Shown here: piece after piece, positions 634-46,600 of the stretch
How positions within the stretch are numbered: position 1 is the stretch's first letter
How the letters are laid out: each line of letters opens with the position of its first letter
Source of the DNA: Podarcis melisellensis
Taxonomy: Eukaryota
Strand: one strand, 5' to 3'
DNA: 64,000 nucleotides
Assembly: GCA_964234715.1 (NCBI GenBank)
Contig: OZ174286.1
The notes under the pieces: generated by a model
The model's database searches: none
What the model was told of the DNA's origin: nothing
What the model saw: the letters and a program-made list of their open reading frames with translations, nothing else
Made by a program: the position numbers and the translations under genes

Positions 634-3600
634 GTAAATATAAAGTGTTTTTATCATCCCCATTGTGGTGTAGTGGTTAAGAGCAGTAGACTCGTAATCT
701 GGTGAACTGGGTTCGCTTCCCTGCTCCTCCATATGCTGGGTGACCTTGGGCCAGTCACACTTCTTTGAAGTCTCTCAGCCCCACTCACCTCACAGAGTGT
801 TTGTTGTGGAGGAGGAAGGGAAAGGAGATTGTTAGCCGCTTTGAGACTCCTTAAGGGGAGTGAAAGGCAGGATATCAAGTCCCAACTCTTCTTCTCCTTT
901 GTTTAACACCACTGATTGAAAAATATAGATCAAGATCTGTATAGAAATAGAGATCAAGGTTGGAAACCTGTGGCCCCCCAGCTGTTGTTGGTATGACCAA
1001 TGGTCAGGGATGATGGGAGTTGTAGTCCAACAACCTCTGGAGGTACCACTGTTTCCCCACTCCTGTTGCAGATGATTCACTACCTGATTGCTTGCCCTTT
1101 TTCACTGTTTCTGGTACTTAGGATTAATTCACATGACCAAGCTGGTGTTCAGAGTATGTGGGTTGAGTTGATCTGTAGTGAGTTGGTTCTGCCTTGGTTT
1201 CACACAACAGGCCAAGTTCACAACCTGGCTTTCAGTAACATTTTAATTGGCACTGCTAGTTCCCCCACCCCCTGCCGTGGATTTCAATACAGTGGTACCT
1301 CAGGTTACGTATGCTTCAGGTTACATACTGTGATGGGACGATGAGCTGCTTGTGCGTAAAATGCAAGTCCCTCAGAGTTTGATCAGGCTTTCAAACCTCT
1401 GCCTGTGACGGAGCCCCTCCAGCATGGCTGCGTCAATCACTAGTAGAATCCGAAAGTGGCTGCTTTCGGAAACGTTTCCAACATAAAAGCTCCTTAACGG
1501 AAACACGTCGTCTGGCCTCTCGGCGTGACAGTTTCCGTCGAGGTGTGGGTGTCCCTATAGGAGGTCCTGAGACCTCCCCACTGGTTTCGCTTGAAGCGTC
1601 TCTGAGCCATCCCTCCGACTCACTTTCCCTTGGATTTCTTGCTCGCCCTCTACTGGTTCCCTCTTCCGCTGCTACTGCTCTCTCACCCTCAGTGAGCCTT
1701 TGCGCCTCCGGCGCTTTAGATGTCAGTTCCCTGACATCCACCTCCCCTCCAGGGCCCCCTTCACCCCCTCCCGTCTCCTCTCCTACTGGCGGTGAGGAGG
1801 TAAAACCCTTGAAAGAACCTCCCTCATCTTCCGACGTCGCGAACACTTCCTTCCACTTGTTGCTGTTCCTACTCTCTAGGTACTCTTCGTCATCAGAGTC
1901 CACTCCCTCTTCCAACTCCGACTCCGCGAACCCTTCCATTTCCTCTTCCTCATCGGTGGTGCCGAAATACTCCCTCCTAAACCTTGCTATCGGCTGAGGT
2001 TTCCTCGGGAACCTTTGATGGAACGTTTCTGTTAAAACCTCGTCATTGACTTCCTGCGCACTTACCCAGGTGTTTTCTGACTCCGGTTCCCCTTCCCACG
2101 CCACTAAATACTCCACCTGATTTCCCTTCCACCTGGAATCGAGGATTTCCGCTACATGGTTGCGGCGTTCCCTCTCTTCCAAGGCTGGTCCCCTGACGTG
2201 CTCCCCTTCACCTCCTCCCCTGTATGGTGACAGTAACGACCTGTGGAACACTGGGTGCAATTTCATGTGATTGGGTAATCGGAGTTTGAAAGCTGCCGGG
2301 TTGACCTGCTGAATCACCTCAAAGGGTCCCAATCTTCTGGGCCTCAGTTTCTTACAACCCCCTTTGAACGGCAACCCTTGGGTTGACAACCACACTTGAT
2401 CCCCCACCCTTATGGTTTCACCTTCCCTTCTGTTCTTGTCTGCCTGCTTCTTATATTGTGCCTTAGCCCTTTCTAAGTTGAGCTGGAGCTGCTGATGGAT
2501 GGCTTCCATCTCTTCTACAAAATGTTCAGCCGCTGGGACGCTCCATCTCTCCCCTCCTTCCCCTGAAAATGCCCTGGGGTGACACCCGTAATTAGCCAAA
2601 AAGGGACTCATCCCTGTGGACACATTCTCCGCATTATTGTAGGCAAATTCTGCCAACGCCAACTTTTCGACCCAATCGTTCTCTCTGTCATTGACATAAC
2701 ACCTAAGATATTGTTGAAGAATGCCATTTGCCCTTTCCGCCTGCCCGTTGGTTTCAGGGTGCCGGGCAGTTGAAAAATTGACTTCCACGTGTAACAAGCT
2801 CATGAGCTTCCTCCAGAACCTGGAAGTAAATTGTTTGCCTCGATCTGAGATCACCCTCGAGGGAGCCCCGTGCAACCTAAAGATATGTTCCACAAACAAC
2901 TTCGCCGTTTCTTCCGCTGTGACTGCATGTGAGCATGCTACAAAGTGGCACATCTTAGTTAACAGGTCTACTACTACCATGATGGCTGTTTTCCCCTTGG
3001 ACCTTGGCAGATCCGTCATAAAATCTATTGATATCGCTTCCCAAGGCCGTTCTGGTGTGGGTAAAGGTTCTAATAACCCTGCCGGCGCCCTTCTTTCCCC
3101 TTTGGCTCGCTGACATTGGTCACACCCTCTTACATACTCCCTTACATCTTCCCTCACCTTAGGCCACCAAAATTCCCTGGTAACCAACCACATGGTCTTG
3201 TGTTGCCCAAAATGTCCCGCCGTGGGGCTATCATGCAACTGCTTGAGTACTCTCCCCCTCAATTCACCTTCGGGTATATACAGTGCCCCTTTGTAATACA
3301 ATGCCCCATTTCTTTCCTCAAAACCTCCGGGGCTCTCGCCCTCCCCCCTGAGACCTCTGAGCTTATCCTGGGCATATTCATCATTTTCCGTTTCCTCCAC
3401 CAGTTCTCGTTGCCCCACCATCGCCGCCCCACACACCCAGCGGTCCTCCGGGATGACATGTCTCTCTTCGATCACCCCCTCCCCTTCCCAATATTCTGGT
3501 TTGCGTGAGAGCGCGTCCGCCCTGACGTTTTCTGGGCCTGGCACATAACAAATCTCAAAGTTAAATTTGGAGAATTCCTGTGCCCATCTCACTTGTCGTT

Positions 3601-6600
3601 GGTTGAGCACTCGAGCTGTTCTCCAATACTCTAAATTTTTGTGGTCGGTGCACACTTGCACCTTGTGTTGTGCCCCAATTAATAAATGTCTCCACCTCCG
3701 GAATGCTTCGTGAATGGCAAGTAGTTCCCTGTCATACACCGTGTAATTCCTCTCGGACTTATTCAGCTTCCGCGAGAAGAAGGCACACGGTCTCCACTCC
3801 GACGCACTCCTCCCCGGTTGAAGAAGGACCGCCCCTACCGCCCGGTCGGATGCATCTGTTTCCACTCTCATGGGTTTTCGTAAATCCACATGCAGAAGTT
3901 GTTCTTCCGAGGCGAAAGCCCTTTTCAGTTCTTCAAAGGCTCGATCCGCCTCTGCCGTCCAAACAAATTTCTTCTTGCTGCTGAGACAGTCGGTGATGGG
4001 CGCCGTCAAGTGGGCAAAGTTCTTGATGAACTTCCGATAAAAGTTCCCAAATCCCAAGAATCTTTGCACGTCCTTCTTGGTCTTCGGTGTCTTCCATTCC
4101 AGTACCGCTTGGACCTTGCCTGGATCCATGGCCAATCCCTTGTCTGACAAGCGGTACCCCAGGAATTCCACCTCCTTGGTATGAAACTGGCACTTCTCCA
4201 GTTTCACCCACAGCTGGTTGGCTTGCAGCCTGCCCAACACTTCTCGAACGTCCCTCACATGCTGTTCCTCATTTTCCGAATACACCAACACGTCGTCTAA
4301 AAAGGCCACACAATTCTTGTAGAGCAAAGGTCCCAGAACGTGGTTTATAAAAGCTTGAAAACACGCGGAGCCCCCTTGTAGACCGAAGGGCATAACGAGG
4401 TATTCAAAGGCTCCCAACGGGGTAAACATGGTGGTCTTCCATTCATCTCCCTTCCTTATGCGTATCAGATTGTACGCCCCCCGCAGGTCCAGTTTTGTAA
4501 AAATCTTTCCCTTCCTTACTCTGGTCAAAATGTCATCAATTCGGGGCATAGGGAAAGCCAGGGGCTCCGACACTGCATTGAGGGCCCTGAAGTCACACAC
4601 CAGTCTCGGTTTGTCTGTGTTCTTTTTGTCCACAAAAAACACTGGGCTGCCCCCCACCGCTCGGGACTCTCTGATGAAACCTCGCTTCAAGTTTTTGTCA
4701 ATGAACTCCCTCAGCTCCTGCATCTCCCTGTCTGACATGGCGTACAGCTTGCCTACTGGGAGTTGGGCCCCTGGGAGTAGGTTGATTTGACAGTCAAAGG
4801 GTCTATGCGGTGGCAGTTTGTCTGCTTCCCTTTCGCTGAATACGTTGCTCAGATCTGCGTATTGCGGGGGCACCTTCCCTTTGTCCATCACTTCCATCCC
4901 CGCTAGGGTGACTCTGTCTCCTCCCGAAACCTTCCCCTCCTTGCAGTGTTCTAGGCAATGCGCTGACCCAAAGGAGACCACCCTCTGATGCCAGCCCACT
5001 AGCGGATCGTGTAGCGCCAGCCAGCTCATCCCCAAAATGATGGGCGCTCCTCCCAGGATGGCCACATTAAACGCTATCTGTTCGGTGTGCCTTGCCACTC
5101 TCATTATCATCGGGACAGTCTGTTGGCTAACTTCTCCCCCCAACAGCTCTCTGCCGTCAATCGTAGTCACCTGCAAGGGGTTACTTAAAGGGATAGTCTG
5201 TATCTGGTGCTCAGCTGCAAACTCCTTACTCATGAAATTACAGGAGCTGCCTGAATCCAAAAGCGCCTTGACCTTTAGTGGGTGTCCGTTTGGCAGTTCT
5301 AGTAACACCTCTATCACTAAAGCGGGTCTGGGGGGTTCTGGCATGGGCACTTTCATTGCTCTTTGGCCTGGCTGCTGTGCCCCAACGGTGGCAGCCAGGC
5401 GTTGGCTTTTACTTGCTCCTTGCCTTCCTCTTCCTTTCCCCCAACAGCTCCTGCCATCCCTTGCCATTCCTTTCTTTGTGGGCAAACTCTGGCAAAGTGC
5501 CCTGGCTGTTGGCAGAGATAACATCTCTTGGCGCTCTTTCCCTCCTTCTTCCGCCCTTCACTGGGATTTGAAACTGCGCGCGCCCGCGCTGTTCCAAATT
5601 CCATCGGCTCTGCCGGCGGGAAAGGTGGCTCTGGAATGTCTGGAATGCGGAACTCCCTCCAACGGTCTCCTTTCCCTTCCCGCTTTTCCATAGCCCTCGC
5701 CTCCTGGCGCGCTCCTATGGCCAGCGCAGATTTGGTTAACTGGTCCATAGACTCCGCCCTGGGGCCCCGGGAAAGCTCATCTTTGACGGTTGAAGAAAGC
5801 CCCTCTTCGAAAAGCATTTGGATGGGCTCCGCCGATAGGTCCCACCCCAATTTGTGAATCAACATGGTAAATTCAGTCCAGTACTCACGGACAGATCTGC
5901 TTCCTTGCTGGCAAGCCATTAACTGCCTTCGCACCACCCCCTGCTCAATATCGCTGGAAAACATCAGGTCCATGGCACGAAAAAACTTCCTCGTGTCCTT
6001 TAAGATCTCATTATTCGCTGCCATCAGGGGTCTAACCCAATCTTTCGCCCCGGATTCGAGATGGCCAATCACATACGCCACTCGCGATTCCTCATCGGGG
6101 AAGTCATCAAACTGCAAGTTTAGAGCGTATTGCATCTCTGTTCTAAAGGCATGATAGTTCCTGGGATCCCCCCCGAATTTCTGCACCAATCCTGGCACCT
6201 TTCTGGCGAGCGGGGTGGTTTTCTCCTTTCCCTTTTCTGCATCCTGAGCCCTCCTCTCCTCAAGCCTCGCCGTTTGCAGCGCCAACTGGATCTCCAACGC
6301 CCTGTACCTTTCTTCCAGGCTTGGACCTCCTCCAGCTGCTCCTGCTTCCCCGGTTCCGGCTGGATTGCTCATGATGCTTCTCCCTGCACAAGCTGGCTTT
6401 CGGAGACTTTCGGATTGCTGTGATGGGACGATGAGCTGCTTGTGCGTAAAATGCAAGTCCCTCAGAGTTTGATCAGGCTTTCAAACCTCTGCCTGTGACG
6501 GAGCCCCTCCAGCATGGCTGCGTCAATCACTAGTAGAATCCGAAAGTGGCTGCTTTCGGAAACGTTTCCAACATAAAAGCTCCTTAACGGAAACACGTCG

Positions 6601-9600
6601 TCTGGCCTCTCGGCGTGACAGTTTCCGTCGAGGTGTGGGTGTCCCTATAGGAGGTCCTGAGACCTCCCCACTGGTTTCGCTTGAAGCGTCTCTGAGCCAT
6701 CCCTCCGACTCACTTTCCCTTGGATTTCTTGCTCGCCCTCTACTGGTTCCCTCTTCCGCTGCTACTGCTCTCTCACCCTCAGTGAGCCTTTGCGCCTCCG
6801 GCGCTTTAGATGTCAGTTCCCTGACACATACGCTTCAGGTTACAGACTCCTCTAACCCAGAAATAGTACCTTGGGTTAAGAACTTTGCTTCAGGATGAGA
6901 ACAGAAATACGGAGCCATGGCAGCAGTGGGAGGCCCCATTGGCTAAAGTGGTACCTCAGGTTAAGCACAGTTTCAGGTTAAGAACGGACCTCCAGAACGA
7001 ATTAAGTTCTTAACCTGAGGTACCACTGTAGTAATATTTCATTTTCAATTGTGCCAGAAAGTACATTTGTATAAAAGAGAACATGATGACACATTCTTAG
7101 GCTGTGTGTGGTTGAGCGGAGACGTATAAAAAAATTGGCCATGTATGCATGCTATAGATAATTGCAGACCAGATAAGGAAAGTCGATTATGCAAGGACAT
7201 AAGAGCGTGCTGGATCAGGCCAGTGGCACTTCTAGTTCAGCTTCCTGTTTTCTCAGTGACCAACCCGTTGCCTGTGGGAAACCTGCAAGCAGGACCTGAG
7301 TTAGTGCAAAAAACAATCTTCTCTCCTGCAGGTTCCAGATAATATGGTTTCATATTATCATGGCCCCTTGCAAATTCCTTTAGAAAACCAAGATCATGTT
7401 GATACTGGCTTTCGTTGTAAAGATCTACCAAAATCCATGGCACTTACCACACATCCGCACTTGAGTGGACGTTCAGAATTTGGTCACACACTTGGAATCC
7501 TAAGGACTGGAACCTTTTTTAACAATCAAAAGAGGCAGAAGAGGGGGGTATGATGGATTAACCAAAGATCTGTATCATCCATTGTTTTGTTTCTAAATGC
7601 TAGCCATCCAAATGCTTCTGGGAAGCTTATAAGTTCACTCTTGTTTGCTCCCAGCATCTGTTACTTAAAAGAGAGAGAAAGGGAGATTCTGAGCACAAAG
7701 ATCTCATATTAAAGTGAAACCTGAGATTCTCAAATACATTTCTGAATGTTTATAAAGTAAAAATACACATGCATATAATTTTGAATCAAAATCAGTGCAA
7801 GAACCCACACACCCCAATGCAATTCCTTATTTATGAATATTTAGAGATTTAGCAAGACTTGCACTTTTCCTCTTCTGTTCCATTTGGCGTAGTTGCCCAC
7901 CCCCACCCCCCTTTCAAGCACATACAAATACTGGTTTTAGCCGGACTTTCTGCTTTCTTATTAACCGGCCAAGTTGTCTGGGAACATTTCCCACTTTTTC
8001 ACACTGTCTGTGCCGCTGATCAGATTAAGTAAATCAGATTATGTGGAAGAAGACTGTATAAACAGCTTCAAGGGATAACAGGAAGTGGGCAGACATTTTG
8101 TTTATGTTTTGACGCATCCCTTTCCAGTGGTTGGGCGCAAGGAAATATCTCTGCTGTTAGGGTTGCCAGGGCAACCAGGATATGGGATTTATCCTCGGCT
8201 GAAGCCCAATCTGTCTACGGTTGGATTTGGTCACTTTATTAAACACCTCCCTATGTTGTCTGCATGAAGGGGGGCACCACGTGATTATTGGGGAGTTGGG
8301 GTGCACTCCCGGTCCCCATGCTGCCTGTCTCTGCTGGGGACATCCATATTTTAGTGTGGTTGTCTGTAATGAAGAAGCCCATGCACAAGTAGCCATTGAG
8401 GCTGGCCCATTGAGATAAATGGGGCACTGCCTTACCAACCTCAACCAGCTTACACCTGCCTGCCTTCTTTCTTACATCCTGTCACAGGGTGTCTCTTCCT
8501 GTTCTTGGCTTTGGCTCCCCCTACTGTTGGTCTTCCTGCCGTCTGCCCTATCAGTCCCAATTGAGGACAAACCACCACTGCGATCATCTGCTTCTGCCTA
8601 GGTGTCATGTACTGAGTTGAATAGGATCCAAATGCAGCAGTCTGATTGGTCCTAGAACAATCCAGCAGTATGATTGGTCCACAGGAGCCACTCAATCCAG
8701 CTCCAGATGGAAGTGAATCCACAACCTGATTGGCCTACAGGAGAATCCCGGAATTAGCCAATCACATGCAGCCAATTGTGTAAATAATGTATATAAAGCA
8801 GATATTTTGGGGGAACTTCCATTCCTCCTCACCACTATGAGCTGGATAAAGAGCATGAAATCCACTCTCGACTCCGAGTATATTTCAGTAGGCTTCCAAC
8901 ACAATCGGGAAAAGAATAATTGAGAGCCCCTATCTTTGAACTCCAGGACAAAGCATACCTTTGTGGTAACTTTTCCAAACTGGCTTTCCAACTTGCTTAG
9001 TTTTATTGGACAAAGTGCAGAACATGTGTAGCAAATCTTCAGCTGGCGGTGGATACCCCCAAACAAGTCTGGAACGTTCATGAATTAAGTTTCAAGCACG
9101 GAAGTGTGGTGTTAAATAAAGCTATATGAGACTATTGATTGTCACTTTAGTTTTGGCACAGCGCGGCCTTTCAATATAACTTGGGTGCTGAGCATTGTTC
9201 ACAGTACATGGTGGAGGTAACCAGAACAAACCAGCCATGCCTACTCTTTTTTAAAAACCATGCTCATTTATTTCAGGGAATGGGAAGGCTGTGCTCAATG
9301 CCCATCTGTCCCAGAACAAAGAACCTCTGAAATGTCCCCATGCCACATCCCTACTAATGCTATGGTAGATTTGTTGGGTGCAGAGAGGTTTCTCACATCT
9401 CTTTCCAGTTCAGTCCTTTTAAATGTATTGTGTGGTGGGGGTTGTTGTGTTGTCTTTGTTCTTATTTTTAGCATGCATCTTGTGTTTTTTTTAATATTGT
9501 AATTTTATGCTGTGAGCCGCCCTGAGATCTACGGGTATAGGGAGGCACAAAAAATTAATTAATTAATTAATTAATTAATTAAAAAAAGTAAGCATATTCC

Positions 9601-16800: not shown

Positions 16801-19800
16801 ATTAAAAATATTCCTGTGTATTGCTGTATTAATGTACTTCATGATATTGTGTCTGTGTTTGTATATTCATTATGGAAATGAACTTGGGAGCTTTAGGGGT
16901 TGCAGGCTCTCTTTCTATGGTACAACTACGAGAGGCAGATCAGAAGCTTTTGCTTCTTCTTTTTTTGGCAAACCACAGTTTACCATTATGAACTTGGAGA
17001 ATGTCTGGATTTGGACAAACCATGGTTAGTCTTAATCATGGTCCATTAAAACAATTTCCAAACATAAAGAAATTTCAAAGCATGGTTTATGAAGCCTGTT
17101 CGTTTTAATAGACCATATCTAGATTAGAAACGGGTTTTTCTGCAGTTATAGAGGTATAATTTCTGTTGTCTCCAGATTTTTTAGCACACTGCCACATTCC
17201 ATTATTATTCATCTAGTGTTCTGGAACAAAGACCATTTTTTCTTCTGACCTACGATTCTTAATAGTTTCCATTTGTGTACAAGTATTGCCCCAGTTTTTG
17301 TGTGGACGTAAGGTTGGTGAGCGTGGTTTGTGAAACATCTGTTTCACTCCACTTCCCTATGACGGTGCAAGCTGTCAGTTTGCGAGCTCAGTTCAGAGGA
17401 GAGAGATTGCAGACTGAGATGGTGATAATGATTCAGAGTTTTGCCCATGACAGCAAAAATTAGCTGCGGACAATATACCTCACAATAACTAGGTTCACCA
17501 GACACAGTAGTTCCTCTTCTTATCTGCTATACTATTAGAATTCCAGAACACCGTGAATTAAATACAAAAAAAGAGCCACAAAAGTGATATTCCTTGGACA
17601 TGTTCATAATTCTTACATTTACCAGAGGAATATGAGAGTATGTAAGGGGTGTGACCGGAACCATAGAACTTTTCTCAATTCAGATACAACCTACTATTGT
17701 AGAAAGAAAATCTTTACTCGTCCCTCGACCATCAGCTCCTCGTCCCTCGACCATCAGCTACAAATTCACTCTTAAAAATATTGGACCAAACAGCAACTAG
17801 ACCAGGCATAGGCAAACTCGGCCCTCCAGATGTTTTGGGACTACAACTCCAATGATCCCTAGCTAACAGGACCAGTGGTCAGGAATGATGGGAATTGTAG
17901 TCCCAAAACATCTGGAGGGCCGAGTTTGCCTATGCCTGAACTAGACCACTACAAAGGATAAGTGCGGAAAGGCCCATAAGTTCTCACATTTCACTGAACT
18001 GTGCAGAAGTGAAAACAGAAGCAAAAACTTCCAGACTTTCCCTCCTGGTTGTGCCTGAGGCATAAAAGGATGCCCTATTCCAAGGCTTACTTAGACTTGC
18101 TCCCATAACCATTCAATATAGTTTATTGTTTCATCGGAATGCAGCTGTTGCATATTAAAAGTGTTTAATTTACTTGGCATGCTGGTAGATGGGAATTGTA
18201 GTTCAGAACCCCAGGATGGCAAAGACTGCTCCAAACAAATGCATTTATATGCGCCTTTTTGTATTCTGTCCATAATGGCAGTTCAATTCAGAGCCCACTT
18301 AGACTGAATTAGCTGCTCTCAATCTGGAAACCCAGTGGGGCAGCCATCTTAAACCCAAGGGACTCCAGTCTGCTTGGGTTGGGATTTTGGCCTGCTGTTA
18401 GCATGTTAAAGTTGCTGCTTTTGTTCACTGTCCTCTCATTTGACGAAGGAGAAAAAAGACACTGTTATATATTCTGGGCCTTGTTTCTGAACAGGACAGC
18501 TGGGAAATTGTGGAAGGACTGCGGGGAGCCATGAATTACACGCAGGAACCACCGAAACAGGAAGGCTACCTGCTGAAAAAGAGGAAATGGCCTCTGAAAG
18601 GTTGGCACAAGGTGAGGACATCTGTCATTGTTGTTTGTTCCCATTAACATTTAAGTCACTTAGTCTGGTGCCCTTGTTGAAAGGCTGGGTGAAGGAGTAT
18701 TACAGCTCCTCAAGGAACAGTCGCACTGTCTTATGCTTCCTGACTAAAAGAGTTTTCTCTGCATTACAGAGATGCTTCTTTCTGGATAAAGGGATTTTGA
18801 AGTATGCAAAGAGCCCAGCTGACGTAAGTACCTCAAAGACACATTGTGCAAACATTGCGTGAATTAATTTGATGTCTGCTTAGGTTTTTGTGAAAGAAAT
18901 CAGTGATTGTTTGAAAGGATATCAGTAGGCAGAAAGAGGTAATCCTGAAAATAGGGGGTTTTTGTGGGGGGTTTTTGCAGTCTTCTCCCTTGAATTGGGA
19001 GTTCAATTGGGAATTGAAATAGTTATTTTTCAATGACTCTTGACAGATAGCGCGAGGCAAGCTGCATGGGTGTATAGACGTTGGGCTTTCGGTGATGTCT
19101 GTGAAGAAGTCAACAAAATGTATAGATTTGGATACAGAAGAACACATTTATCATTTAAAGGTAATCCTGTTGTTAAGTAATATCAGAATGTCTTTCTGGT
19201 GCTGGAAAAGATTGCATTCAACCTAGAGATCTCCATCTGTTTCCCCAGAATCCTGTTGAATTTGCTATATTTTTCCCTATTTTGCCCAGTTCGCTTAAAA
19301 TGCAATCTTACTCTCAACTTGCTGCAAGGTCATATCTTACTCTAAGCTTGAACCGAAGGTGTCGTATACGGCTTTGAAAGTGATTGTTTAACTTGAATTC
19401 CCACACATGGGAAGAAAGTTTGAAGAACAGCATAGTTTTAACTACTAAATATTATTTTGATGCTTAATATACATTTAAAGTATGTAATCGTGCCAAAGAT
19501 ATATTATTAATAGGCTAAAGATTATTATATGCTTTTTAGTGTGAACGATCGTGATTTTGCATGTTAATATCAAAGGATGTTATATATCGAAGGATATGGG
19601 CATAGTGTAATATGCTGCAGCACGGTGCGTCAGAAAATCAGAGTTATACAAGATCTGCTTTTAATCTTTGGAGGGGTGATTGGACTGAGTGAACTAGAAC
19701 CTCTTTTGCCTGTCAGTAATATGTGTGTAGCTAAGGGAAATCACGCTTCTGCAGTTGCCACTGCTGTTTTCCCATGGTGTTCAGTACTCTGCTTTCAAAG

Positions 19801-22684: not shown

Positions 22685-25600
22685 ACCCCCTGGGAATGAA
22701 AATGGGGGTGGGGGGTTGGTTTCTTTACAGCCTTTGGGCTGGAGTTCCTTGGGCTAAAGGTGATATTATCAGAGGTGTTACAAAACATACGTTAGGCAGC
22801 ATAGCTAATGATCAGGGTTGGTGAGAACCACAGGGCAATAGGTTCCCCACCCCTGGCGTAAATCATTGTCCTAGCACTATGCTCACCCCAGCTGCAGGAC
22901 TCCTCACTGTGAAACTTCTTTTTTAAAAAACAAACAAACCCTGTTTGCTGCTAGTGTCCTTTTTAGGCTAGGAAGGAATGAGGAACGTGTGGTTGAGTAC
23001 TCTCAACATGGGGAGAAAGGCAGAGAGGACATGCAGGTGCATAGGAACTGAAACTGGGTTTCAAAGCAGATTAGGAACATGGGCAGCAGCCTTCTAGTGA
23101 GTCAAGCCAGTGAGCTACAGCCCTTCCTTGGTTTGAGAAGAACAGGTGGAAGGCGATTAGAATGCCCTTGAAAAAAAGATTTGTTCCAAAACACATTGAG
23201 CCTAATAAATCCTCTTCCTATGTACTTCGGGGTATACTCCATTTCCTTCCTCTGACTGGGGTCTTCCTCACTTCTGAGCACTGCCAGGATACCAGCATCT
23301 TCTGCTATTGTGTTCCTCTCTGCTTTCCTACCCAAAACTCTCTCAGGAGCTCTCTTTGAGTAAGCAACTGGGTCAGGCATGCGAGCTACCTTTAAAATAC
23401 CTTTTTCTCCTAGCCTATGTTTTCTAATGGAGTGTGTATGGGTTTGTTTGGGGTTTTTTTGGTAGGCATGGAGAGGGAGGGAGAAATTCAGCCGTTCAAG
23501 AAAAACTAGCCCCCAGAGCCTAGTTTGTGTGGAACATCTTCTCCAGTCTTGTTTACACGTCACTCAGTTTTACTGCTTCGGTTTTTGATAGGGCTGTTTC
23601 AAGTTAAATTCTTGTAAGAGAGTGCTAACTTAGCTGCGTATTAAGAATTAGACAATCTCATCCAGTCTCTTGAGGAAGCTAATAATTACAGTGAGAACAA
23701 TGCTTTATGGTGCTATTAGTCTAAAGAAATGGAATAGAGGAGGGCCAGGACTCCCTCCGAAGGTCGTGGACTCTCCTTCCTTGGAGGTTTTAGATGTTGG
23801 ATGGCCATCGGTCAGGCATGCTTTAGCTGAGATTCCTGCCTTTCAGGGGGTTGGACTGGGGGGAGGTCCCTTCCTACTCTATGACCTTATGCTCAAAGAT
23901 GCTGCTTAAACTCTCTTCTCCCTGCAAACGTTATTGCAACCTGTGAGGTGAGAGTGTGGTTGCTCACGAAGATAACAGCCAGGACTCCGGCCTGTTTTTA
24001 CAGGTTTTATTGAGTGCAAAACTTATGTACAGTGTAGAAGTCCAAAAACCACGTCTGCCTTAATCGCTAGCAGATTCCGGAAGTGCCTTCTTCCTGTTTG
24101 CCCTCCAGCATAAAAGCCCGGGAAAACCTCCTCTTTTCCTTACGTGAAATTCCCTGGCGAAAACTATGCGACGGAAGAGGCACATCCACTTCCCTGGGAG
24201 TAGTGTCTTGGCTCCCCTCCGCCTGACTGAGCCTTTGCCTCGTCTCCCCCCAACCTTTTCTCTCTTCGTCCGTGTCTCCTGAAGGCTTCTTCTCCCCAGA
24301 CTCTGAGGAAGTGCAGCTGCTCAACAGAGGAGGAGGCTGTCTGTACGTTCCTGTCCCCCCCCCCCCCCCGTGAATGCAGACCCCTGACACAGCCCTTTTA
24401 AACATGGATCATATATTTCATAGGTGGTATGTTTTTGCGCCACTGCTTTGTGTGTGCTAAAATCCTACCCACCTATTCGTAAGCTTTGCTTTTAATAGCT
24501 GTTTCAACAGATCCTGGGAGAGTAACCACAGAATCAGAATGTAACCGACAGCCAGACACATCTGTCATAATCTTCTGAATTACCTAGTAATCAGTTACCA
24601 TTAGAGTTCTGCTGAAAGATACATTGCGCATACACTAGATAAATGGAGGGGTAGATAACCTCTTCCTCCCTCTCCCCTCCCCCTCTCTTTTACAAAGCAC
24701 TGAAAATCGTTTCTTTCTTCCCAACAGACCTCTCCCACTGTCATAACTATCTGCTGGAAATGAGCCAGCTTCTGCAAAGCATGGAAGTTCTCCACAGGAC
24801 ATACTCAGCGCCCGCCATAAATGCCATGCAGGTTAGTTGTGCAAATTGCTACCTCTGTTCGGTCATGCTGCTAGCTCGTGTCAGCTTTCTTCCTAGAGTT
24901 GTGATAAATGCCGTTCTTCTCTTTCCCGTGTGCTGTTCTAAAGGGCATCCCCTTTGAAAGTCCTAAAAAGGAAAAAAGAACACACAGGAGGTGGCGTTCC
25001 CGAGGTCTTAGTAAAGATGCGAAAGGAATGTTGCAGGTAACCAGCCTCTCTTCACCCATCCTCTTCCAGGCTTAGCCTAAAAATGTAGGTGTGGATGAAC
25101 TGGTGAAAACTCATTTTCTCCAATATAATTGACGGTCTTAGTAATTGCTCTCGGTGACAGATGGTGATTCCGTTCTGCTGGTGTGATATAAGCAGAGGGT
25201 GCTGCATTCACTAATCTATTGAGCCTTTCGTTCGCTGAACTTTTGACAGCATAATAAATAACATTTATATCCAAGATTGGCTCCATCCATCTGGAGAATG
25301 CACATTTATTTGGGTTGCTGAGTTTACAGGGGTCTGCAGAAGGGTGAAAGGGGTAGCGCAGTCGTAAGAGTACACACTTTGCATGCATAATATCTCACGC
25401 CAATGCCAAACATTTCCCATTAAAGAATATCTGGTAGTGGCTTCTTAAGCCTTAGAAAGCTGTTGTCATTTTGGGGTAGGGGAACTAGGCTAGTTTTGGT
25501 CTGACGCAGATGAGGCTAGGGATGTCATGCTGGTCAACTGATTGGTCAAATACGATTAATTGGCTGCAGTCCAACATGTTAGGAGCACCCTGTGTGACTA

Positions 25601-43600: not shown

Positions 43601-46600
43601 CCCTGGTCAATGGCCTTTCTGGCTAGGACTGATAATAGTACAAAACATTTGGAGAGCAGCAGATTGAGGAAGGCCATTGGTGAGAATTTAACTTGCCTAC
43701 GCCCCAGACCTCTCTTCTAGTGGTTGTAAAGCAGGAGTAGGGAGCTTATGGGTTCTCCAGATCTAGTTGGACTCCAACTCCAACCCGCCCCGCCTATGGT
43801 CAAGGATGAAGAGAGTTGTACTCTTTCAACATGGAGATCCACAGGCTTCCTGCCCTTGCAATAAAGCGTAGAGCAGCTCACAACAACTATTTGTGGTGTC
43901 CTTCCCCCCCCCCCCATGGAAAGCCTCTTTGCATTGAGTCTGGATATAAATGGCAGCAGTGAATGGGACATGAAATCTTTTTACATGATGGGGCTGAGGT
44001 TTAATACTGGGAGTTGTGTGTTTGTTTGTTTTTTGTGAACAGCTGGGCTATACTATCATATGGATACCTTCCCCAGAACCTTTGGGTCACAAACCGTGAA
44101 GAAATGGAAAAATGAGGAGTTGTAGTGATGTTTTCTATGGCATAATCGTGGCTGTAACCGCTATGTATTGCATTACACCAAATCTATTGGTTGATTGATT
44201 TTAGACATTGTCAAACAAACAAGAAACAAATGTTTTTACCCATCCTACTTTGGTAACAGCACCTCTTCTCCTTTCATGAATGCTTTGATCCATCATGGTG
44301 TATTTATTGATAAAGGTAAACCTAGCAGTTCAAAAGCACACTAGTGCAAGTAGATAAATAGGTACCGCTGCAGCGGGAAGGTAAGCAGAGTTTCCGTGAG
44401 CTCTGGTTTCCGTCACAGTGTTCTGTTGCGCCATAAGCGGTTTAGTCATGCTGGGCACATGACCCGGAAAGCTGTCTGTGGACAAACGCCAGCTCCCTCG
44501 GCCTGAAAGCGAGATGAGCGCCGCAACCTGGTTGTTGCCTTTGACAGGACTTAACTGTCCAGGGGTCCTTTACCTATTTACTTTCTTACTTGTTGATGGT
44601 GAGCTTCTCTTGCATAGGGCCAAATCCAAGAATCCTAGTAACTTACTTGAAAGCCCACAAAAAACTATCAGTGATGTAGCTAAGGCTCATGGAGACGAGT
44701 GTTCCACGTGCAGTTGACTTTAATGAGTTATTTTAATAATATGTGTAGTGCCAAGGCCTGACACATCAAATAGCTCTTGATAGTTAAGTGCCCAAATTAT
44801 CAGAACTAAAACAGCAAAACTGTTGAGTGGAAAACACTCTTGTAAATGCCTTTTTTTAATAGAAAAAACACATTACAGATAAGCTTGTGGATAAGCTAAG
44901 GATGTCAGTTTCAATTAGCCAAGTGTGCTGCTTACTTCCCAATCAAAATCTATAAAATGCACCATAGAATTGTAGAGTTGGAAGGACAGATCCCTTGGGG
45001 GGGGGGTTAAAGAACCTTTCACTGGCACAAAAAGATTGCCCAGATTTTACCCACCTCAAGTCTGTGTAAAATGAAATTATGAAGTAGCCTTCCCCGTGCA
45101 AATGTTAGATTACAGCTCCCATCATCCTCAACCATCAGCCATGTTTGCATTTTGACAAGTCAACACAAGTGTATTGAGGGGTATTGATACACCTGCCCAA
45201 TTCTCTGTGGTGGACAACAGGAAAAGGTTTTTAAAAAATGATTAAAATGGGAGCTCCCTCCTCTCCTTTTTTTCCTTTTTGTTTTGTAAAACCAGGCAAT
45301 TAGCCTGATTTGATGAAGTGTCGAGGGCACTACCACTTTGCTGTCCTGCTTTAATTTCACAAGGGACGTGCAGAAAGTTATTCAGAGCCTGTTGTTCATC
45401 AAGCATTTATTCTGATTTGCTTGTGGGGAGTTTGTAGGACATTTGCCTCAAGCAATTGTTTTCTCATACTTCCCAGTGCACATTCCCACTAACCTAACAC
45501 AAAAAGCCCCATTTCTTAAAGCAGGTTTGTTGCACAATCTGCTTTAACTCCTCGATCCAAACTTGCTGTACGTATGACTGTGTCTCATCCGTTAAAAAAC
45601 ACAGTAGTAATAGCTTGAAAGTGATCTTAGAGCTTAAGCCTGTTGATTTATTGTGGGGAAGAACAAGCTGATAAGGAGCGTTCTAGCAACTGTCTTTCAG
45701 GCAGTGCAAATCAAGATGTGAGGGCGGAAAAGAATTATACCAAGTACATAATGCTTGTCTTTATTTGACATTTTGCTGAATCCTTCTGTGCTTTTGCTCC
45801 TTGTGTCCTTTCTAAAGTGCATGCTGCCCTCAGTTCTTTTTACTGCAGGGAGTATCCAAGGTGCTGCTTCCCAGATGCTGGCCTTTGGCAATGCTAGCCG
45901 AGACTGATGTGAGTTGGAGCCCCACATCTGGAGAGCAACAGATTAGCTACCCCTGTTTTGCAGCCTGTACTTCAGTTTTTCCAGTAACAATCTAAGGCTC
46001 CTGGTCACTGTTCTTTTTTCCATATGAGGTTTGGCAGCATGGGGTTTCTCTTCCCTTCCCAACGTCTCCATGTTTCTCTCNNNNNNNNNNNNNNNNNNNN
46101 NNNNNNNNNNNNNNNNNNNNNNNNNNNNNNNNNNNNNNNNNNNNNNNNNNNNNNNNNNNNNNNNNNNNNNNNNNNNNNNNNNNNNNNNNNNNNNNNNNNN
46201 NNNNNNNNNNNNNNNNNNNNNNNNNNNNNNNNNNNNNNNNNNNNNNNNNCAATTTAGAATACAGTGGTACCTCGGGTTAAGTACCGTATTTTTCGCCCCA
46301 TAGGACACACTTTTTCCCCTCCAAAAATGAAGGGGAAATGTATGTGCGTCCTATGGGGTGAATGCAGGCTTTCGCTGAAGCCTGGAGAGCGAGAGGCATC
46401 GGTGTGCATCAGGAAGCTATCCGCAAGCCTTGCAAGCCTGGTGGGAGATCCCGCGGGCTCACAAGGCTTGCGGGCAGCAGCCCGAAGCACGGGGTGCCCT
46501 CCGGAGGGCTCCCCATGCTTCGGGCGAGTGTCCGCAAGAACCTGGGGCGGCAGCCGCGGCTGGGGGGTGAAATAATTTTTTTTTATTCATTCCCCCCCCC

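Follow-up and report, generated by a model that had tools for sequence, protein, structure and literature searches.

A lizard Gypsy retrotransposon with a pol frame that continues through U3 of its own LTR and candidate LEDGF/HRP2-docking motifs on its integrase tail

Introduction

How Gypsy elements of vertebrates enter the nucleus and choose their insertion sites is an open question, and it is raised in an unusual form by a locus of the lizard Podarcis melisellensis. The window analysed here, a stretch of 64,000 nucleotides from contig OZ174286.1 (assembly GCA_964234715.1), holds on its minus strand a Gypsy element with identical LTRs of 408 nt each and a 5-nt target duplication (Table 1). 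Its pol is a single stop-free frame that crosses the polypurine tract (PPT) and the entire U3 of the 3′ LTR and ends at position 1433. A preliminary description of the window had proposed that U3 is under coding constraint and supplies integrase with a basic tail resembling a nuclear localisation signal (NLS). Is this part of the LTR kept for the protein that it encodes or for the promoter and primer signals that it also carries, and what might the tail do for the element?

Results and discussion

The element and its surroundings

The window element has the Ty3/gypsy domain order with a C-terminal chromodomain, and its pol frame is −1 relative to gag. The closest named matches outside lizards include a fungal Tf2-like polyprotein, and the element is likely a young, self-priming-type Gypsy chromovirus of the Tf1/sushi group. 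The earlier estimate that pol reads about 100 codons into the 3′ LTR was accurate, the frame at 1433–5557 (−) using 101 codons of the LTR including the stop. Downstream of the chromodomain the tail consists of two FxGF units, the translated PPT, an acidic linker in U3 and a basic end. By eye against the HP1 pattern, positions 1 and 3 of the aromatic cage of the chromodomain appear to be non-aromatic.

Table 1. Positions in the window of the features of the element and of the related solo LTR.
Feature	Position	Strand	Remarks
3′ LTR	1329..1736	−	TG...CA, 408 nt, same sequence as 5′ LTR
5′ LTR	6419..6826	−	
Target-site duplication	6827–6831 and 1324–1328		GTATG
gag frame	5353..6480	−	capsid, CCHC knuckle; first ATG at 6372
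pol frame	1433..5557	−	1374 codons: protease, RT, RNase H, integrase, SH3, chromodomain, tail
Chromodomain	2012..2155	−	Pfam PF00385, upstream of the PPT
TIM-like motif 1	1928..1984	−	RFRREYF + GTTDEEEE + MEGF; M in place of the F of most relatives
TIM-like motif 2	1802..1858	−	KWKEVF + ATSEDEGGS + FKGF
Polypurine tract	1737..1750	−	read as part of G-G-E-V-D
LTR-coded integrase tail	1433..1736	−	101 codons including stop; whole U3 and beginning of R
Basic end	1463..1540	−	basic stretch + hydrophobic-x-x-hydrophobic-hydrophobic-C-W + KRFRK; bipartite-NLS-like, low-confidence helix
Self-primer, 3′ LTR copy	1447..1457	−	11 nt, under codons P-L-S-D-S; first base is the inferred U3/R border
Self-primer, 5′ LTR copy	6537..6547	−	inferred RNA 5′ end
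Primer-binding sequence	6406..6416	−	2 nt past the 5′ LTR; pairs with the self-primer
Solo LTR	23942..24389	−	older related family B, decayed; same frame, ends at 24060

Several further observations concern the setting of the element. In the gag/pol overlap, G GGA AAG at 5434–5440 (−) fits the X XXY YYZ form of a slippery site for a −1 frameshift. The element sits inside a short dispersed repeat (1287–1328 and 6826–7030), and the same repeat also adjoins an element of the distant lineage G (L219) and an LTR of family B (L052). Two exon-like stretches on the plus strand, at 541–633 (MTEEKN...) and at about 18519–18620 (DSWEIVEGL...), continue one another. Pfam had no match for the second, and the gene is presumably OSBPL3. 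The element would sit antisense in that intron. A run of N at 46081–46249 lies outside the finding.

Read-through among related elements

A genome search with the window element gave at least 150 matches at 99% identity or more. The same 225-residue tail was found in 29 of the 30 sister copies fetched, the remaining one being frameshifted, and this agreement rules out a loss of the stop codon private to the window copy. Searches with diverged tails yielded 95 distinct chromodomain-led frames, and 58 of these are open from the chromodomain through the LTR to an end that contains Cys-Trp (CW), a share biased upward because some queries held the tail and regions were picked mostly among stop-free matches. 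Another 11 tails enter the LTR in frame and end differently, 5 enter it out of frame, 9 have no LTR that we could find, and 12 stop before the LTR, at positions scattered 15–330 nt upstream and in no case family-wide. In a set chosen without LTR sequence (30 examined), the frame from the LTR start to CW was kept in 13 of 21 scored (p = 0.007 against one third); among decayed relatives of the solo LTR the net frame was kept in 10 of 22 scored (p = 0.16).

The read-through recurs in lineages with integrase cores 55–91% identical. Lineage G (L218–L228), with a core 55% identical, has an LTR of 784 nt. Its coding part measures 658 nt in 11 of the 12 elements that were fetched; the other one was not anchored. 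Lineage H, with a core 61% identical, enters the LTR in frame in all 9 copies and reads 99–104 codons of it in 8. A shifted end is common to 4 of the 9, all within 0.8 Mb of one contig, and these four are likely duplicates. Continuation of pol into the LTR, which the preliminary description had wished to see followed from family to family, is present in sister copies, in diverged tails and in lineages G and H. All full-tail relatives bearing a species name are from Podarcis muralis, in collections poor in vertebrate retrotransposons. Most of the old full-length copies, many of which are multiplied, sit on one 38.8-Mb contig (C19), a clustering such as would be expected of a non-recombining sex chromosome.

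Selection on the LTR-coded frame

The 58 open tails were thinned to 32 at <93% identity. In sets that were aligned as protein and drawn from open copies, both of which favour the coding frame, tree-based dN/dS of the LTR-coded part was 0.26, 0.36 and 0.31 (groups of 6, 16 and 7 sequences), compared with 0.9–2.1 in shifted frames. A fourth group of 3 sequences, compared only pairwise, gave 0.37, and lineage G gave 0.33, with 0.12 in its last 40 codons. The terminal motif part had values of 0.12, 0.21 and 0.40 in the three groups and 0.12 in lineage G, and the part of the tail ahead of the LTR had 0.18–0.34.

To avoid the bias of protein-guided alignment towards the frame, DNA alignments were made of 15 disjoint pairs. 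The frame-blind differences at the first, second and third codon positions numbered 187, 177 and 310 in the coded part (p = 2.5 × 10−11) and 95, 89 and 111 past the stop (p = 0.27), where there is no third-position excess. Gaps divisible by three were 6 of 12 in the coded part versus 2 of 22 after the stop. Close pairs of old copies had a pN/pS of about 1.3–1.4, near neutral, as expected from decay after insertion. The proposal of coding constraint on U3 is supported, with dN/dS well below 1 in several groups, the measure that the preliminary description had suggested, and with a third-position excess that ends at the stop. Judged by these substitution patterns, the LTR-coded tail almost certainly functions at the protein level.

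The original argument for protein conservation had been drawn from the solo LTR, and it carries less weight. The match at 24060–24119 is as described: 10 of its 19 residues are the same, and the stop falls in the same place. The protein match to the LTR frame of the window scores 63, just above the highest value (62) among 1000 dinucleotide-model shuffles. As proof of protein conservation the pair of 20 codons does not serve: at the DNA level 42 of 60 nt agree, and the mismatches are spread 7/5/6 over the codon positions, so that this pair cannot tell constraint on protein from constraint on DNA. The codons of L-S-D in the compared stretch also contain the self-primer. Upstream, the frame of the solo LTR had been said to continue after one small frameshift; the shift is real, and it is a deletion private to that copy, its relatives L040, L046 and L051 having an open frame all the way from the beginning of the LTR to CW. 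Within the family of the solo LTR, the large shared gaps measure 39, 12, 12 and 9 nt, and of 10 shared gaps 6 have a length divisible by three; the column test within that family was not significant (29/22/36, p = 0.18).

The basic C-terminal end

A bipartite NLS consists of two basic clusters 10–12 residues apart. This pattern, spanning CW, occurs in 27 of the 32 tails versus 2,117 of 9,600 shuffles (22%), and to that extent the NLS-like character ascribed to the tail in the preliminary description stands. The invariance of CW in the 32 tails is by construction, since tails were chosen for a CW ending. The Cys is not shared by all lineages: the corresponding residues are LLNWC in lineage G, and in lineage H a Cys is missing at this place. 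A core function through Cys palmitoylation was considered and set aside, given its absence in lineage H. An AlphaFold2 model of the tail is of low confidence (pLDDT 49) and places helices on motif 2 and on KELLCWKRF.

As read from its sequence, the LTR-coded basic end likely helps nuclear import. It is unlikely, though by no means fanciful, that the basic helix is instead an element for targeting chromatin or nucleic acid, comparable to the CR motif of plant CRM elements and not an import signal. Such a role has a precedent in CRM group A, where the passages concerned describe the LTR-coded CR motif as a putative targeting domain (PMC3059260), and it would fit the position of the most basic 20-mer, which lies 2–23 residues from the C-terminus in 32 of 32 tails, as well as the hydrophobic spacing and the W, both kept beyond the needs of an NLS; the bipartite pattern across CW argues against it and for import.

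FxGF motifs ahead of the LTR

Both FxGF units lie upstream of the LTR, between it and the chromodomain, and had been missed in the preliminary description. Each unit consists of an aromatic helix, 8–9 acidic S/T-rich residues and FxGF. This matches a TND-interacting motif (TIM), which the relevant passages of one source define as a helix with an F/V/L/I anchor, an acidic S/T linker of 8–16 aa and FxGF, the last having a unique role in LEDGF/HRP2 recognition (PMC9987994); in those of another, the MLL1 helix carries Phe129 and Phe133 and the consensus is D/ExExFxGF (PMC8022399). A TIM pattern that was written after the motif had been seen is present in 32 of 32 tails, twice in 25 of them. It occurs in 7 of 9,600 shuffles and in none of 69 polyproteins from other retroelements. 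The strict D/ExExFxGF occurs in 20 of the 32, the window copy not being among them. Five key residues of motif 2 are invariant in a 28-row alignment, and every synonymous codon for the F and the G of FxGF is in use. Lineages G and H each keep one FxGF unit; the linker of lineage G is serine/threonine-rich, not acidic. Pfam searches of the tails returned Chromo only, a PDB search with the motif region gave nothing relevant (2 matches, E > 1), and the ESM Atlas had no usable match.

Two loci in the genome match the LEDGF family, and the LEDGF and HRP2 genes both appear to be present. ESMFold2 scored motif 2 with residues 399–489 of Podarcis LEDGF at 0.35, compared to 0.01 for the best control, with contact agreement of at least 79% and partner pLDDT no lower than 55. 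The pass is a weak one, of a mark that 51 of the 78 solved complexes in a calibration set without peptides reached, as did 2 of its 108 mismatches; at 0.60 or below, the mark was reached by 5 of the 78 solved complexes and by all 4 passing mismatches. The pass may also reflect memory, since solved LEDGF–TIM complexes exist. We regard binding of a TND by the FxGF motifs as an even call. It is improbable that the partner is another TND protein or a protein of the element itself: at least 15 human proteins have TNDs, and a predicted TND pass does not identify which family member binds, but FxGF is the feature with the unique role in recognition of LEDGF/HRP2 (PMC9987994, in the passages on TIMs), and the genome appears to hold both genes.

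Self-primer and other signals beneath the codons

In accounts of Tf1/sushi self-priming, the passages concerned give the 5′ end of the RNA as the primer. With the primer as the RNA 5′ end, U3 would span 1736–1458 and the stop would lie 22 nt into R. Of 30 elements examined, 25 were scored, and 20 of these have a primer/PBS match of 10–11 nt, with seven different primers, each changing together with its own site; the match in the window is 11 nt long. In lineage G such a match is present in 10 of 12 elements. The minimum free energy fold of the predicted window leader pairs the primer helix, with a whole-fold z of only −1.06.

The CW codons lie 25–31 nt ahead of the inferred start, the distance of a TATA box, and TTA is found at the position preceding CW in 11 of the 32 tails. 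The DNA beneath the CW motif is variable (CTT TTA TGT, CTA CTC TGC, TGG GTC TGC, CTT GCA TGT), and no TATA-like word is common to the lineages. LLCW cannot be put down to a TATA box alone, as the DNA differs among lineages and the hydrophobic pattern stays. Changes of the primer in groups A, B and D preserve L-[STP]-[DE]-[ST]. Codon constraints and cis-signal constraints both act on the LTR. That U3 is conserved solely for promoter and primer nucleotides, the open frame being incidental or a matter of 3′ UTR shortening, is very hard to credit and largely refuted, because the TATA distance, the TTA and the covarying primer, which would agree with it, stand against low dN/dS and a third-position excess that extends throughout U3, including a linker distant from the TATA position and the primer signals (dN/dS 0.24–0.42), against lineages that share no TATA-like word and against primer changes that keep the residues.

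The young A- and D-type LTRs (window 1329–1432; L155, L158, L160, L162, L172, L190) have no AATAAA after the stop; it is present there in L066, L090, L093, L105 and family B.

Proposed mechanism

On balance we lean towards an account in which the U3-crossing pol is under purifying selection, the basic end would serve import and the FxGF units would dock to the TND of LEDGF/HRP2. U3 would be present once in the RNA, at the 3′ end, and could be translated there, and its DNA copy in the 5′ LTR would serve as promoter. The tail would remain attached to integrase, and its LTR-coded basic end would import the integration complex into the nucleus. The acidic linkers may be phosphorylated at S/T-x-x-D/E sites, and the FxGF units would tether the complex to LEDGF/HRP2, steering insertion to transcribed chromatin. 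Such a tether could stand in for a chromodomain that seems to be without a methyl-lysine cage. More tentatively, and with some inclination to doubt, we suggest that lizard sushi-type retrotransposons captured a host LEDGF/HRP2 docking motif in tandem on the integrase tail, arriving by mimicry at the tether used by HIV, with the rest of the targeting tail encoded inside the promoter.

Because a short motif here matches a structurally defined host interface, the docking is directly testable with peptides. If the FxGF binding is true, a retrotransposon and the lentiviruses have converged on one chromatin tether. The dual use of the LTR also makes the solo LTRs of these families coding sequence in decay, and codons constrain the evolution of the promoter.

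Comparison with known systems

The preliminary description had likened the coding U3 to nef of HIV and sag of MMTV, which share with it the coding in U3 and are separate genes, not the end of Pol. A closer match is provided by the plant chromoviruses of CRM group A (CRM, Beetle, Bingo), in which, according to the passages on their structure, the pol ORF likewise runs into the 3′ LTR (PMC3059260, PMC3605345); the layout itself is therefore already known. CRM group A elements live in plants, are primed by tRNA-Met and carry the CR motif where a chromodomain would otherwise be, whereas the window element has a chromodomain upstream, looks self-primed, carries its ORF across all of U3 into R and resides in a vertebrate. 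It resembles CRM in layout and is not a CRM member.

With Tf1/sushi elements (Tf1, sushi-ichi; the V-clade of GyDB) the window element shares a chromodomain integrase, a CCHC Gag, the −1 gag-pol arrangement and the self-primer with its PBS, as far as these are treated in the passages concerned (bioRxiv 10.1101/2022.12.06.519325, PMC4600332, PMC6317226). Passages on Sushi LTRs make no mention of read-through (PMC3601003). In the parts of the literature consulted we found no description of LTR read-through in vertebrate Tf1/sushi elements, repeat-database notes, which may record the long ORF, being outside that scope, and no retrotransposon integrase described as bearing an FxGF motif.

HIV uses LEDGF to aim at active genes, and its integrase binds LEDGF via the folded core and is not known to use an FxGF-type motif. 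The tail of Ty1 integrase is not known to be LTR-coded. Its basic C-terminal NLS region is reported also to target integration (PMC7459421). The nearest likeness to the FxGF units is in the IBMs of MLL1, JPO2 and IWS1, which, in the passages describing them, have helix aromatics at i and i+4, an acidic S/T linker of 8–9 aa and FxGF (PMC9987994, PMC8022399); in contrast to these, the candidate units of the window element are in tandem and sit on a retrotransposon integrase. What is new here is the presence of FxGF motifs between chromodomain and LTR.
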